From assembly GCA_030770535.1 (NCBI GenBank), contig JASVEC010000001.1, positions 1,302,001-1,366,000 of the forward strand: 64,000 nucleotides of DNA. Direction: 5' to 3'. The DNA comes from Batkoa obscura (taxonomy: Eukaryota). The notes under the pieces are model-generated. The model was not told where the DNA came from. It saw nothing but the letters and a program-made list of their open reading frames with translations, and ran no database searches. Made by a program: the position numbers and the translations under genes. Below, one piece after another: positions 10,013 through 24,266 of this stretch (within the stretch, counting starts at the first letter, position 1; every line of letters begins with the position of its first letter).

Positions 10013-11360
10013 TATTATTTTATTAGGTGAATTAAGAATTATTATTATATTAGCTAACTTTTTATTAGTGCTTTGTGGTGAGTTAAATGGTAGATTTTTA
10101 AATGTTTATATATGTTTTTTGATCCATATGGATATTGGTCTAGAGGTTTTGTTCAAAAAAGTTAATACATCATAGATAGTAGCTCTCCATCTTGTTAATA
10201 TTAAATCCTCAAACTATTTGATTGTATTTTTAATATTTCTAATGACTTTATTATCTCAACATACTATTTTTATATTTTACACCAATACTTTTAAAACCTA
10301 TTTTTAAAGTTAGCCAAAAAAGTAGTAAATTTTACGGCGTAAATTAAAATTTCAAGCTTTTATGAATTGAAAAGGGGTGTTTTTAAAATAAGTAAAAAAG
10401 ATACCATTTTTTTACTCTGGTTTTTTAACCAAATATACAACTGCTATAACTTTATTATGACAAATGGCTGTTTAAAAACAAAATTTTGCTAAAATCACAT
10501 AACATCTAGTGGTTAGGTATTAGAAAACTAAACAAGCAAACAAATAGCTCTAAAAATTATCATAAATCTGGTCGCAATAGAGTTACAGCAGCTGTATAAG
10601 GTTGTTTCAAAAATGATATCCCTTTTGGGCAAATTTTTGCAGCAAAGATGTAGAATTGCTACAGTTAACCTTTTTTGTGTAAAATATATTTAAACATGAA
10701 AGATATTTTTTGTTGTAAACAACAGCCTTTTCATTATTTTGCCTAAAAAAGGAGATTACTTAGAAATGCCATTATAAAAAGAATTTTATTCAAAAAAAAT
10801 TAGTATTGGTAGTTTTTGATTATATACCGTTTATAGTGTATTATAACATATGAGTGTCATTTTGTATTAAAAAACACCAACTGATTTATTATACGTTTCT
10901 AATAAAGGTATGTGTTTTATCAGCTTCATACCAATTATACTGATAAAGGAAACTTTAAGGTATCAATATAGGTTTGATAGTATGTTCGATGAATATTTTA
11001 TGTTTTCAAATTTGAAATAATAGCCATAGGATTGAAAAAAATGTTTTTGTTTTCAACTTGTCTTAAACTCCTATTGCTATAATATTTTTTAAAATTTAAG
11101 TTACTATTATAAACATAATGACTTATGATATATGTTAAACTATTTAAAAATCTAGTATGTATACTTCTGTAGTACTTATTTATATTAGTATAAGAAAACA
11201 AGGCATAGCTGTGTTTAATAAAACAATAGTAGTAGCTATTGAATATAAAGATAAATTGTTTATTTCGATAAAAAGAAGCAGAGCCATTAATACAATATTA
11301 AACCACATTAATATCACTTATAATAGTATCAAAATAAACAAAAATGCAGTATCAGGTAGT

Positions 11361-11570
11361 TTAACAATCGGCACCACAACAGCATCTACCCCAATCACAA
11401 TCTCCATTGATACCCCATTTTGAACTTCTTTCATTGTTTCCACAAGCATTTAAACAATCTTGATCAATAAGACATTGTCCAGTTTTAGAAGTACATCTTC
11501 TACAAATATCGGAACCAGCTACATAGAGAACAAAAAAGAGAACTAATAATAATTTGAAATTGTTGAGCAT
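11361..11570 (-). CDS. 10-Cys defensin-like secreted peptide, type A (copy 1)
   Basis: MLNNFKLLL signal peptide; mature CxxC..C-x5-C-x3-C..GxC-x4-CCC..C (CS-alpha/beta spacing with a GxC gamma-core). Start set by homology to the other copies. Confidence 0.88.
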   Translation of the reverse strand: MLNNFKLLLVLFFVLYVAGSDICRRCTSKTGQCLIDQDCLNACGNNERSSKWGINGDCDWGRCCCGADC

Positions 11571-12763
11571 TATGAGTATTCTAAAATAAGGGGATATAAT
11601 TAATTGTACTTGAATACTATAACTATGTTTACCTTCTAAAGTAATAAAATAAGTGTTTGTAAATATTGCTGATACTTTCATCCGCTATTTATACTACTTT
11701 TTACCAAAGATAAATCATATTTTTAACGTTGAAAATAACCCATAGTACCATGTTGGAATGTATTCTTTTTTGCTTACCTTAAAGCAAACTGCAATTAATA
11801 TCAATAACCTTTATAGGAATAGGATGTTAAAGCTTTTATCAGAAAACAAATTTCAATACCAATTTTTACTTAATTATGACAAAAATAAAATAATAGCTAG
11901 CTGTGTACTGTGAATGGTTAACCCATTTTATATTTTTGTTTACTTCTTGCACTTAGTTTTATTTTATTTTGACATGTTCATAACGTCAATTGGTGGAACA
12001 CACTTGGATATGACCCAATTTAGCTAATTATAGCACGGTGATTAATTAAAAAATAATCATAAGTTAGCTTGAAATTTAATCAAAAATTCAATTAAAGTGA
12101 TGTATTTAATTATACAAGAGTTAACTTTAATTACCGTTGTTATAAAATTAAATAAATTATTCTAGTAAATATCAGAAAGAGGAATTAGTGAATTTTTCAA
12201 CCACATACTGATCATGTAGAATACAATAACCGTGATTTCATTTAACGCTAAATTGGTTAATTATTTCATGATAAGCATCACCAGCTAAAAATGGTTTATT
12301 AATTGTTTCTAAACTATAATCATTATGAGAATTTCATAAATGTTAATATTACATAGGATTGTGTGTAAAAGATCTTTTTTTTGAACATTAGTTGGTTAAA
12401 ATTGCGTATTTAATATAAGCACTTTAATTTTGAACTCTATATTTAAAGCGATAACTTTGTAAAGGACAACTTAAATCAAAGTTATGATATTAATATTAAT
12501 GTTGACTATTATCAGTTAATAAAAAAGAAATCATTCAAAATCATTCTGCTCTGATTTATATCTATATTCTATCTATATTAGTATAAAAAAACAAAGCACA
12601 TCTTAATCTTGACCAAATAAGGATAATTATTATTAAGTATAAAGACAAATTGTTTATTTCGATAAATAGGGCTGGTCTGCTAATTTACTATGAAAATAAT
12701 ATAGTGTCATTTTTGACACTAAACAATAATATCAAAATAAACAAAAATGCGGTATCAGGTAGT

Positions 12764-12973
12764 TTAACAATCGGCACCACAGCAACACTTACCCCAATCA
12801 CAATCTCCATTGATACCCCATTTTGAACTTCTTTCATTGTTTCCACAAGCATTTAAACAATCTTGATCAATAAGACATTGTCCAGTTTTAGAAGTACATC
12901 TTCTACAAATATCGGAACCAGCTACATAGAGAACAAAAAAGAGAACTAATAATAATTTGAAATTGTTAAGCAT
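12764..12973 (-). CDS. 10-Cys defensin-like secreted peptide, type A (copy 2)
   Basis: Identical to copy 1 except R>K before CCC. Confidence 0.88.
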   Translation of the reverse strand: MLNNFKLLLVLFFVLYVAGSDICRRCTSKTGQCLIDQDCLNACGNNERSSKWGINGDCDWGKCCCGADC

Positions 12974-13031
12974 TTTGAATATTCTAAAGGAAAAGATGTT
13001 AATATTTTATAGCTCAAATGTTATAATTATA

Positions 13032-13604
13032 TTTACCTTGTACAGTAATAGAATTGGATTTAATGAATCTGATATCTACTTCTATACGCTATTTATACTA
13101 CTTTTTCGGAGATAGACGATCAACTTTGATAGTTTTAACGTTCAAACTTGACGCAAAGCCACACCATGACACGTTTATTTTGTTATGTTAGTTAAGCCAA
13201 CTGATATAACGATTTATTGTTTTAAATCCATAAGGGCAATAAAACTATTCTAAAGTATCGGTTTCAACACTCACTGTTATTTAATTATGACAATAAATAA
13301 AGTGATGAATAACTATGAACTGTAAGATAGTGTAATAGGATTTGTATTTGTTATTTTATTTTATTTTATTTAGTCCATTTAAGATTAATAAAAATTTCTA
13401 ACATAATAATAAGGATAATGTACACCCCTTGTCTTTGACACTAATGTTGATTAATGGAGTCAACCATGAGATAATTTAATTTAATTAGTTACAACCAAGT
13501 CAATCAATAAAGAAAGTAAGCAACAAGCAAATTAAAAGTATTTTTTTAAAAAGCTGGTCAATCAAATTAATTAGTGAATACAATCGTTATGGTTAATTTT
13601 ATGT
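13032..13604. repeat. Upstream region of peptide copy 2; inverted repeat of 23084-23655
   Basis: ~570-bp reverse-complement match with about 15 differences counted by eye, mostly distal. Confidence 0.9.
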
Positions 13605-13655
13605 ATTGTTATAAAATTACATCTCTTATCTTGAGTAATAACAAGGTAAATATAC

Positions 13656-22495: not shown

Positions 22496-22711
22496 ATGTT
22501 TATCAATTTCAAATTATTATTAGTTCTCTTTTTTGTCCTTTTTGTTACTTCTGATATCTGTAGAAGATGTAATAAAAAAGGTGCTGTAGGTAGAACTTGT
22601 GTTGCTGATCACGAATGTGGAAATGCCTGTTCTGATTTTCCTAGTAGTCCAAAATGGGGTATCAATGGAGATTGTGATTGGGGCAGTTGCTGTTGTGGTG
22701 CCGACTGTTAA
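22496..22711 (+). CDS. 10-Cys defensin-like secreted peptide, type B (copy 7)
   Basis: Same scaffold; SSPKW variant. Confidence 0.88.
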   Translation: MFINFKLLLVLFFVLFVTSDICRRCNKKGAVGRTCVADHECGNACSDFPSSPKWGINGDCDWGSCCCGADC

Positions 22712-22986
22712 GCTTATAAAATGACATGCTTGTATATTTTACTATTTTAAAGTATCATAATAAACAACGCTAAACTGGTTTAATACTGGTTTATTAAACT
22801 AATTTTGTAAAAAAACAAATTTGATTTTTGATCTTTGATTTTTAATTTTTATATCAATATCACCCTTTAAATTATATTTAAATTTACTTTGATTATAGCA
22901 TTAATAACAATAACAGTTTATATTACATAGAAAATATTTTCTTATTATTCAATTTGAAAAAAAGTGTAGTTTAACAAACATTATAT

Positions 22987-23085
22987 GGGGATGTATTTTT
23001 TTGTTTAAGAATTTTACCAACAATCTTTCCACTCAAATAGTGCTTAAAAGATGGAAAAAGTAATGAAGTCAAAAAAACATCCCAC
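22987..23085 (+). mobile_element. MITE family 1
   Basis: Consensus match; abuts the repeat shared with copy 2. Confidence 0.9.
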
Positions 23086-23655
23086 ATAAAATTAACCACA
23101 GCAATTGTATTCATTAATTAATTTGATTGACCAGTTTTTTTAAAAAATACTTTTAATTTGCTTGTTGCTTACTTTCTTTATTGATTGACTTGGTTGTAAT
23201 TAATTAAATTGAATTATCTCATAGTTGACTCCACTAATCGACATTAGTGTCAAAGACAGGGGTGTACATTATCCTTATTATTATGTTAGAAATTTTTATT
23301 AATCTTAAATGGACTAAATAAAATAAAATAAAATAACAAATACAAATCCTATTACACTATCTTACAGTTCATAGTTATTCATCACTTTATTTATTGTCAT
23401 AATTAAATAACAGTGAGTGTTGAAACCGATACTTTAGAATAGTTTTATTGCCCTTATGGATTTAAAACAATAAATCATTATATCAGTTGGCTTAACTAAC
23501 ATAACAAAATAAACGTGTCATGGTGTGGCTTTGCGTCAAGTTTGAACGTTAAAACTATCAAAGTTGATCGTCTATCTCCGAAAAAGTAGTATAAATAGCG
23601 TATAGAAGTAGATATCAGATTCATTAAATCCAATTCTATTATTGTATAAGGTAAA
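23084..23655. repeat. Upstream region of peptide copy 8; inverted repeat of 13032-13604
   Basis: Reverse-complement match ending at the 5'UTR intron donor. Confidence 0.9.
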
Positions 23656-23715
23656 CATTTAATTTTATAATTTAAATATTAAATATTAATAACCATTTCC
23701 TTTAGAATATTTAAA

Positions 23716-23931
23716 ATGTTTACCAATTTCAAATTATTATTAGTTCTCTTTTTTGTCTTTTTTGTTACTTCTGATATCTGTAGAAGATGTAATAAAAAAG
23801 GTGCTGTAGGTAGAACTTGTGTTGCTGATTATGAATGTGGAAACGCCTGTTCCGATTTTCCTAGCAGTTCAAAATGGGGTATCAATGGAGATTGCGATTG
23901 GGGTAGCTGTTGCTGTGGTGCCGATTGCTAA
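23716..23931 (+). CDS. 10-Cys defensin-like secreted peptide, type B (copy 8)
   Basis: Same scaffold; ADYEC plus SDFPSS combination. Confidence 0.88.
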   Translation: MFTNFKLLLVLFFVFFVTSDICRRCNKKGAVGRTCVADYECGNACSDFPSSSKWGINGDCDWGSCCCGADC

Positions 23932-24266
23932 ACGTAGAATATAATATACTTGTTTGTTTTGATAACTTACAACAACATACATTTTTACGATTATTCAATA
24001 TTAAACACAATTCATCAAAATTAGAACTTTTATGTTAATATTTTATTGATTTAATTAACCATTTAGTAATTTTAATTTGTAATATCATATTTATAGTCTC
24101 TTGAGTTTGAAACCATTTTGTTCATTTATTAGTCTATTGTCAAAATATTTATACCTCAATATCTAGGAATCCCTGTTTCAACTAATATTCAAATTGTTAA
24201 AATGTATTTTTAATCATTGAATCAAAACGTCACAAGATGTATCACTATTATACTATATAGTAAATA

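Follow-up and report, generated by a model that had tools for sequence, protein, structure and literature searches.

Mosaic promoters, introns and coding blocks in an inverted array of small cysteine-rich peptide genes of Batkoa obscura, probably shaped by gene conversion

The window analysed here is a 64,000-nt stretch of the genome of Batkoa obscura, an insect-associated fungus (assembly GCA_030770535.1, contig JASVEC010000001.1, positions 1,302,001 to 1,366,000). It holds eight intact ORFs for small Cys-rich peptides in a head-to-head array flanked by ordinary genes, with copies 1–4 on the minus strand and copies 5–8 on the plus strand. Copies 1, 2 and 6 encode type A (69 aa), and copies 3, 4, 5, 7 and 8 encode type B (71 aa). 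A TATA box is present in all eight complete copies, at −124 to −128. The earlier note's inventory of eight copies is correct for the intact ORFs but overlooked a decayed ninth member and the repeats. The decayed copy has lost its start codon and several Cys codons and carries an in-frame stop and a frameshift; its promoter (20249–20415) is 63% identical to that of copy 1. The repeat is a dispersed element of ~105 bp with twenty-two copies in the window, nine of them inside the array. The features of the array are as follows, in window coordinates.

11361–11570, minus: copy 1, type A coding sequence (69 aa); 5′UTR intron at 11581–11632, TATA box at −124
11958–12034, minus: far-distal promoter block of copy 1 shared with copy 7 (22019–22093), 77% identical, near the mirror position about the centre
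12764–12973, minus: copy 2, type A coding sequence; intron and coding sequence equal to copy 6 over 250 nt (12790–13039)
12984–13036, minus: 5′UTR intron of copy 2 (53 nt, GT..AG), spliced out in a contig of run X2
13032–13604, minus: promoter and first exon of copy 2, identical to 23084–23655 in 558/573 columns
13647–14144, no strand: three MITE-like ~105-bp repeat copies, two of them the ends of a 198-nt inverted pair
14399–14735, minus: copy 3, type B, coding sequence (14520–14735) and 3′UTR; poly(A) site at 14399
14872–15060, minus: distal promoter of copy 3, 66% identical to that of copy 6 (18880–19070), at mirror distance from the centre
16244–16931, minus: left arm of the central 688-nt inverted repeat, with the copy 4 coding sequence (16262–16477, type B) and promoter
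16932–17017, no strand: unique 86-nt spacer between the 688-nt arms, the centre of the array
17018–17705, plus: right arm of the central inverted repeat, with the copy 5 promoter and coding sequence (17472–17687, type B)
19206–19415, plus: copy 6, type A coding sequence; first exon 92% identical to copy 1, intron identical to that of copy 2
20630–20842 (approximate ends), plus: decayed ninth copy
22496–22711, plus: copy 7, type B coding sequence; the aligned 5′UTR donor is AT, not GT
22676–23895, plus: segment that one uninterrupted contig of run X1 lacks (end of copy 7, 3′ flank, repeat, promoter 8 and most of copy 8)
23084–23655, plus: promoter and first exon of copy 8, near-identical to those of copy 2, beginning at a MITE-like repeat
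23716–23931, plus: copy 8, type B coding sequence; 3′ flank (23997–24588) 67% identical to the copy 4 flank

The array is predicted to encode secreted, disulfide-rich peptides of a defensin-like kind. Type B Cys spacing fits the pattern C...CX3C...C...CXC (C16, C22, C26, C41, C46 and C48), but the X of CXC is itself Cys. For type A only, the Pfam family AtDEF-like scored 20.7 bits, short of the cut-off of 25. Structure models (pLDDT 70.8 and 52.4) place a predicted helix over CxxxC; Foldseek and VIA-align gave no fold match for the first model, the second being too poor as a query. A sequence search of the PDB returned at best a sugarcane defensin (E = 0.47, not significant). In the ESM Atlas the top score was 0.82, to scorpion short-toxin clusters; this is no more than a lead, as one-third of shuffled proteins reach 0.8. 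Three relatives of the B peptide occur among 5.8 billion clustered proteins, and three matches, two of them additional to these, came from searching 1.84 billion representatives with a profile. None of six window peptides is present in a 15-billion collection, and a metagenome scan reduced 122 candidate stretches to two loci, both coding for unrelated proteins. No papers on these peptides were found among the matches listed in a literature search. The ten-Cys peptides look undescribed and weakly defensin-like, and the family is apparently small and lineage-restricted; its role is probably in microbial competition or host interaction. Fungal CS-alpha-beta defensin-like peptides (framework in PMC5234102; licosin in PMC13199095) share the hydrophobic leader, the short mature peptide, the spacing C-x5-C-x3-C ... 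C-x4-C-x-C and the predicted helix over CxxxC. Unlike CS-alpha-beta peptides, those of the array have ten Cys, with an extra N-terminal CxxC, a terminal C and Cys as the x of C-x-C, their net charge is near zero, and no match to a family or fold was significant.

Promoters, introns and coding blocks are genuinely mosaic among the copies, and the mosaicism that the earlier note had described is borne out by conflicting module trees and significant run tests. Copy 2 is a clear chimera, with the promoter and first exon of copy 8 and the intron and coding part of copy 6, joined at the intron donor. The near-identity of promoters 2 and 8 up to that donor is confirmed: fifteen of 573 columns differ, mostly clustered, and the block falls into two strata (12 differences in the distal 179 columns, 3 in the proximal 394; Fisher p = 1e-4). 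The composition of copy 6 is as the earlier note described (TATA-to-donor segment 92% identical to copy 1, intron 100% identical to copy 2), but the trees single out copy 2, not copy 6, as the clear mosaic. Copies 1 and 6 form a patchwork, with 5/62 differences in exon 1 and 19/53 in the intron (p = 4e-4), and their A-type first exon is found in no B gene of the window. Copy 3 changes over to the sequence of copies 4, 5 and 8 at about −93. The central arms have two mismatches (686/688 identical), and the flanks beyond them are only 62% alike. In the C-terminal block the copies do not separate into A and B; type A of FSU 785 (P0002) has other residues there, whereas the window's type A matches B.

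Some of the proposed pairings between copies are less exclusive than they appeared. The distal promoter common to copies 3 and 6 was recovered together with its quoted motif (14872–15060 against 19070–18880; 66% over 192 nt, E = 1e-14). For copies 1 and 7 the shared block is real (11958–12034 against 22093–22019; 77% over 77 nt, E = 7e-10), but the pairing was overstated: in the 300 nt above the TATA box, copy 7 is closer to copies 2 and 8 (62%, z = 13) than to copy 1 (56%, z = 4.7). The promoters of copy 1, copies 2/8, copy 7 and the decayed copy belong to a single homologous family, so the promoter pairs are not exclusive. The 3′UTRs of copies 1 and 2 do pair (77% over 60 nt, z = 9.5; 71% over 195 nt). 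The claimed pairing of copies 6 and 8 comes down to a 37-nt match (78%, E = 0.009); over 300 nt of 3′ flank, copy 8 pairs with copy 4 (z = 10.8) and copy 6 with copy 7 (z = 7.4).

Copy 5 is identical to copy 4 and was excluded from the trees and the PHI-like test, which gave p = 0.0005 at three window sizes. Run tests were significant after Bonferroni correction for copy 2 against copies 4, 5, 8 and 6, for copy 3 against copies 4, 5 and 8, and for others. Coding-only identical runs (1/2, 4/7, 5/7 and 7/8) were not counted toward conversion because selection could explain them. Module-wise trees, proposed earlier as a check, proved incongruent: the intron partition and the coding partition each reject the exon-1 tree, and vice versa (AU test, p < 1e-4 both ways). 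The intron tree and the signal-plus-variable tree are congruent (AU p = 0.45–0.56) and the copy 2 junction lies at the intron donor; the signal peptide, suggested as a crossover block, was therefore not used as one.

The five longest exact matches (680, 266, 250, 219 and 185 nt) all join opposite arms, although the 266-nt match occurs in direct orientation too and copies 1 and 2 share 178 nt directly. Exact inverted matches of at least 40 nt number twenty-one and total 2793 nt. Tract ends are scattered relative to the ATG (about −631, −450, −188, −133, −93, −73/−66, −10 and +183 to +231), and only the copy 2 junction and the intron boundaries lie near the 8-nt donor motif. The tracts also differ in age, with identities from 62 to 100% (4/5 at 686/688, 2/8 in its two strata, 3/6 at 66%). 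Non-coding homologies are mirror-placed about position 16974, at dL 713–913/dR 714–910 (62%), dL 1914–2102/dR 1906–2096 (66%) and dL 4940–5016/dR 5045–5119 (77%). Among the 3′ flanks the pairs are 4/8 and 3/7, which departs from mirror order.

A search of sequencing runs returned six small-share runs from three studies, none listed on its record as RNA. Four runs (X1, X2, X3 and X5) were compared with the window as short-read contigs, none of those listed reaching across the array; X2 is a probable RNA run. Over 591 nt the X2 contig equals promoter 2 without a difference; across the splice (joint 12983/13037) it continues into an A-type exon, with one difference to type A where a B exon would give six. 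The X3 contig comprises copy 3 and its flank, with no differences over 277 nt, and its poly-T loose end marks the poly(A) site. At least one A copy (copy 2, from the spliced contig) and at least one B copy (copy 3, from the polyadenylated contig) are transcribed in the runs of one study; in such bulk contigs, A/B exclusivity at the level of the cell could go undetected.

Copy content differs between the window and another strain. X1, from that strain, has one contig with a single gene, of type B, which lies behind promoter 7 and runs into the copy 8 flank. This contig fits a pop-out deletion; it is compatible with a loss in X1 or a gain in the window's lineage, and could be a short-read assembly join. 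Copies 1 and 2 have almost no cover in X1, a gap given no weight as evidence because missing cover is no proof of absence. X5, a relative of ~91% identity, keeps the adjacencies of flank 4 with promoter 3, flank 5 with distal promoter 6, and promoter 1 with an A gene. The flanks of copies 4 and 5 differ from each other, and both are found in X5. Record 18 of X5 is compatible with the exon–intron combination of copy 6, its indel positions not being reproduced under five scoring schemes. Tandem copies, B+B and B+A, are fused in gene models of FSU 785, where a third peptide type also occurs. Two repeat copies in the window, at 15534 and 18197, had been considered as mirror evidence and were dropped; the first is absent from X5.

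We consider it likely, with a probability of about 0.78, that the mosaics arose by repeated one-way gene conversion over an old inverted duplication, together with tandem gains and losses, and that the array holds no working switch. The duplication would have produced two arms, with copies 4/5, 3/6 and 1/7 at near mirror distances. Recombination begun in conserved gene bodies would have copied tracts of ~60–700 nt between copies; short conserved motifs, for example the TATA box and the splice donor, would lie at or close to the tract ends. Exchanges between inverted copies would keep gene number while those between direct copies would pop genes out, so that a palindromic layout would be likely to keep both peptide types at high dose. 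The array combines incongruent trees, identical tracts, a non-reciprocal outcome (promoter 2/8 is present twice, and the reciprocal B gene is absent from the window), copy-number change and a pseudogene, as a conversion-homogenised multigene array does. The decayed copy and the X1 contig without 22676–23895 are signs of birth and death. The proposed recombination between oppositely oriented copies is thus supported as history, with the longest matches all running arm to arm. The direction and order of events are not fixable from one haplotype, and copy 8 and the decayed copy have no simple fit to the mirror pattern. Repeated exchanges near the intron donor (the copy 2 junction and the intron boundaries of copies 1/6 and 7) could hint at a preferred site.

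The earlier note had allowed for either inversion or gene conversion. Conversion fits; inversion alone is inadequate because it cannot double a promoter and no B gene has the A-type first exon. It is improbable that rare historical inversions, through crossovers between inverted copies, did most of the re-assorting. The twenty-one inverted matches are possible substrates, the 3′ flank pairs 4/8 and 3/7 are out of mirror order, and human Y palindrome P6 undergoes rare inversions alongside frequent conversion (PMC3723533). Inversion should, however, leave reciprocal products, and none of the promoter exchange was found in the window; crossovers in twenty of the twenty-one matches would leave A and B under the same distal promoter type. 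Somewhat less probable again is a recombinase-free contingency locus, in which inverted-copy crossovers would flip parts of the array in clones and occasionally re-pair A and B (e.g. through the 78-nt exon common to copies 2 and 5), tuning the mix of a new ten-Cys defensin-like family.

The earlier suggestion of a shufflon-like or expression-switching system, actively inverting as clones grow and altering the pairing of promoter and peptide, we regard as very unlikely. The inverted layout and two cassette types would suit it, as would the occurrence of one promoter type with both A and B and the junctions near the splice donor, and contigs drop rare variants. Yet every gene has its own TATA box, copies 2 (A) and 3 (B) are both transcribed in one study's runs, and the adjacencies persist in X5. 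Tract ends are pair-specific, and no single short recombination site common to all junctions was found. Only one of the twenty-one inverted matches (78/2793 nt) would re-pair an A/B block with another promoter, and a Pfam search matched none of the sixteen window ORFs of at least 150 aa to a site-specific recombinase family.

There is little chance that mis-assembly of the repeated genes produced the mosaics. The shared tracts (152–680 nt) do exceed short-read length, but the spliced X2 contig confirms the copy 2 junction, which is therefore not a chimera of assembly; the X3 contig matches copy 3 and its flank without a difference, promoters 2 and 8 are distinguishable at their fifteen differing columns, and the distinct flanks of copies 4 and 5 both exist in X5. 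Least credible is a driving role for the MITE-like repeat in duplicating promoter 2/8, as an anchor for ectopic recombination or a carrier of the promoter: the block starts at a repeat copy in the same orientation on both sides, and nine of the twenty-two copies sit in the array, but the two repeat copies are 87% alike inside a background of 80–92%, extra bases separate repeat and block in copy 2, tracts 4/5, 2/6, 3/4 and 1/6 end without a repeat, and an X5 contig resembling promoter 2 passes into unrelated sequence at 13617.

Gene conversion has precedents in other arrays. Hessian fly SSSGP-1 comprises seven or eight small secreted-protein genes in ~15 kb, in tandem and inverted copies, with domain-limited homogenisation ascribed to short conversion tracts (PMC2955719). 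Its non-coding parts are homogenised while the mature regions diverge; the present array, four genes against four head-to-head, has two coding types each homogenised and patchy promoters. At human Y palindrome P6, conversion keeps inverted arms identical and inversion is rare (PMC3723533), a likeness to our central arms. Y arms are >99.9% alike throughout, unlike the gene-centred patches seen here, where intergenic arms are 60–77% identical and partners are often not mirror copies. The IncI1/IncI2 plasmid shufflon likewise has alternative cassettes in both orientations at one locus, but with one pilV 5′ part, partial 3′ ORFs, 19–23-bp repeats and the Rci tyrosine recombinase (PMC5430464). Compared with such R64/IncI-type shufflons, the present genes are complete, each with a promoter, and neither a common site nor a recombinase was found in the window. 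Pneumocystis msg-I is also a fungal multigene family with mosaic genes formed by homologous recombination, but has a single-copy promoter (UCS), a 33-bp CRJE, mutually exclusive expression and subtelomeric silent copies (PMC10622565), whereas here all copies have a TATA box, the flanking genes are ordinary and both types are transcribed.

The array offers a compact, datable case of regulatory modules altered by conversion, both arm-to-arm and tandem, in an early-diverging fungus that has received little study, and its ten-Cys secreted peptide family is worth assaying. Live inversion switching, if true, would be notable because multiplexed site-specific inversion systems have reportedly not been found in eukaryotes (PMC11850598); the evidence points away from it.

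Elsewhere in the window, an ORF at 62385–62891 showed neither a Pfam family nor a match to phage. At 60699–61313 lies a second spaced palindrome, nearly perfect (278 nt, 8 mismatches) and free of peptide genes.

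The window holds eight intact open reading frames for small cysteine-rich peptides, found between 11361 and 23931 in a six-frame scan and encoding six distinct proteins. Their layout and the other features of the window are as follows (window positions):

Copies 1-4: minus strand
Copies 5-8: plus strand
Copies 1, 2 and 6: type A, 69 amino acids
Copies 3, 4, 5, 7 and 8: type B, 71 amino acids
Near 20630-20842: a decayed ninth copy
6869-7949 and 9312-10397: direct duplicate (91 per cent), gene for a Gly/Ser-rich protein that bears a hydrophobic leader
35173-36168: GH18 chitinase-like protein
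38912-44764: FKS1 glucan synthase
46192-47178: DEAD-box helicase
50834-51949: flavin oxidoreductase
56513-56783: AT-rich 13-nt unit repeated in tandem
60699-61313: second spaced palindrome, arms 278 nt with 8 mismatches, spacer 59 nt
60409-60620 and 62988-63203: inverted ends (85 per cent) enclosing an ORF at 62385-62891

Given these strands, both arms are transcribed outward from a centre near 16974. The same TATA motif lies at -124 to -128 in every copy, and each has a 5'UTR intron of 52-55 nt with its 3' end at -10. Copy 7 has AT, not GT, at the aligned donor position (window ~22431), and its intron may be retained or use an alternative donor.

The earlier note described these genes as re-assorted promoter, intron, coding and 3'UTR cassettes; that description holds in most respects, and the mosaics themselves are real. 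The regions upstream of copies 2 and 8 are identical at 558 of 573 columns, the likeness ending at the intron donor. Copies 3 and 6 share a distal promoter (66 per cent over 192 nt), and copy 6 joins a copy-1-like first exon (92 per cent) to an intron identical to that of copy 2. The promoter pairing of copies 1 and 7 holds over 77 nt (77 per cent), but near the TATA motif copy 7 resembles 2/8 more than it does 1. Among the 3'UTRs, 1 does pair with 2, but the match of 6 to 8 covers just 37 nt, and across 300 nt the partner of 8 is 4 and that of 6 is 7. Contigs of three sequencing runs (X2, X3 and X5) do join an A-type end to a 3'UTR resembling that of copy 8, in a copy absent from the window.

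This mosaic pattern exceeds chance (PHI-like test, 87 informative sites, P = 0.0005). Module-wise trees are incongruent: both the intron and the coding partition reject the exon-1 tree, and exon 1 in turn rejects theirs (AU test, P < 1e-4). Among 121 polymorphic columns, a run of 28 (-130 to -76) has copy 2 identical to 4/5/8 and a later run of 79 (-65 to +188) has it identical to copy 6; copy 3 is identical to 4/5/8 from -92. The run pattern and the tree conflicts together make copy 2 the main chimera. The signal-peptide block, suggested previously as a crossover site, does not behave as one, since no A/B mosaic is divided there and the intron and signal-plus-variable trees are congruent by the AU test.

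The likely cause is an ordinary one, to which we give a probability of about 0.78: duplication, loss and patchy conversion within a palindromic gene array. When the arms were compared with genes and repeats masked, homologies were found at mirror distances from the centre (flanks 4/5, promoters 3/6 and a far promoter block of 1/7), which suggests that an old inverted duplication underlies the array. Conversion tracts of various ages would overlie it. The central 688 nt have two differing positions between the arms, and the flanks beyond are 62 per cent alike. The block shared by copies 2 and 8 is itself stratified, with 12 differences in 179 distal columns and 3 in 394 proximal ones (P = 1e-4), and copies 1 and 6 differ at 5/62 exon sites versus 19/53 intron sites (P = 4e-4). 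At the copy-2 junction, the exact tracts are separated by two bases that agree with neither flanking donor tract's copy 8, which would fit two tracts abutting on an older gene resembling copy 1. All five of the longest exact matches run from arm to arm; direct matches of 266, 178 and 152 nt are also present. The pattern is similar to that outlined for the Hessian fly SSSGP-1 cluster (PMC2955719), and the array resembles in miniature the Y-chromosome palindromes, in which, as summarized in PMC3723533, conversion is frequent and inversion rare.

Two of the runs come from other strains. In run X1 (~96 per cent alike), one 1758-nt contig leads from promoter 7 via a B gene to the copy 8 flank without 22676-23895, and a pop-out between direct copies would account for it without inversion. 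In run X5 (~91 per cent alike), flank 4 still adjoins promoter 3, flank 5 adjoins distal promoter 6 and promoter 1 adjoins an A gene, adjacencies read beside genes and not from promoter to flank across one, as the contigs end at shared coding parts. The copy-6 combination was sought in these contigs and not identified. Loose ends in X2, X3 and X5 represent additional variants absent from the window.

The earlier note went further and proposed shufflon-like or expression switching, which we consider very unlikely as a live process. Contigs lose rare variants, which could include isomers within a clone. Against a switch, however, all eight genes have promoters, transcription extends to one copy of type A and one of type B, and tract ends are scattered (at about -631, -450, -188, -133, -93, -73/-66, -10 and +183 to +231). 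Inversion would yield reciprocal products and cannot double a promoter, yet promoter 2/8 occurs in two copies; none of the window's copies is a B gene with an A-type first exon. Exact inverted matches of at least 40 nt number 21 and total 2793 nt, imperfect homology lying outside this count, and only one of them (78 nt, copies 2/5) would place an A/B block behind another distal promoter. None of the window's sixteen long ORFs matches a recombinase family. Shufflons, as described in PMC5430464, combine a single constant 5' part with partial cassettes, repeats of 19-23 bp and the Rci recombinase, and Pneumocystis msg-I, in the account of PMC10622565, has a single promoter and a 33-bp junction element, whereas here each of the eight genes has its own promoter.

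Transcription is seen in runs X2 and X3, which come from the same study, possibly of the window's own strain, and whose RNA nature is our guess. A 650-nt X2 contig follows 13627-13037 with no differences, skips a 53-nt intron (GT..AG) and continues along 12983-12928 with one difference, where a B exon would give six. An X3 contig matches copy 3 and its flank without differences over 277 nt and has a poly(A) end at 14399. In copies 2 and 3 at least, the mosaics thus do not stem from misassembly; that promoter 8 is joined to copy 8 is seen only in the window sequence. The X2 contig (13037-13627) reaches 591 nt above the donor, well past the TATA motif near 13098, which may reflect an upstream start or read-through out of copy 3 or the MITE-like repeat.

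The value of the locus lies mainly in its clean record of palindrome conversion and in the peptide family, which is apparently undescribed. The peptides have a hydrophobic leader of 19-20 residues (length assigned by eye); the part after it, 49 or 52 residues long, contains ten cysteines that are invariant in all 11 aligned sequences and has a net charge near zero. Their spacing fits the CS-alpha-beta framework as laid out in PMC5234102, except that the C-x-C motif is CCC. Weak matches include Pfam AtDEF-like (E = 5e-4, under the cut-off, type A only), a sugarcane defensin (E = 0.47) and an Atlas lead (0.82). Structure models of low confidence put a helix at the CxxxC motif, and fold comparison gave no match. 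A defensin-like fold is somewhat favoured on this weak support; for related fungal peptides, PMC13199095 indicates that antibacterial and channel-blocking activity is possible.

Two gene models from Neoconidiobolus thromboides FSU 785 (95 per cent identity) are the nearest relatives with a name, and a 72-aa protein is a further relative. Since none of the six window peptides tested was found in the protein collection searched, the window probably comes from a different strain or a sister species. By our reading of their sequences, the two models (P0001 and P0002) combine tandem copies, B+B and B+A, and appear to be mis-annotations splicing two tandem peptide genes into a single protein. A profile search adds a third FSU 785 peptide type and one distant protein. 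In an X1 paralogue, 621 letters separate the signal-peptide and C-terminal blocks, versus about 113 usually; it is possibly an insertion-broken copy. RIP and RNAi in this fungal group, as covered in PMC11105155, have little bearing on the verdict.

The chitinase-like, glucan synthase, helicase and oxidoreductase genes are ordinary neighbours. The Gly/Ser-rich duplicate has no Pfam family, and the ORF at 62385-62891 has no match in Pfam or phage searches; the region around it, bounded by inverted ends, is possibly a decayed DNA transposon. The second palindrome sits in a repeat of ~460-500 nt with further copies at 54139-54654 and 61727-62211. A MITE-like repeat of ~105 bp with short inverted ends has 22 copies in the window (2713 to 63547), nine of them within the array, and is matched by thousands of X1 and X5 contigs. 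The copy at about 15530-15641 is missing from X5, an insertion polymorphism.
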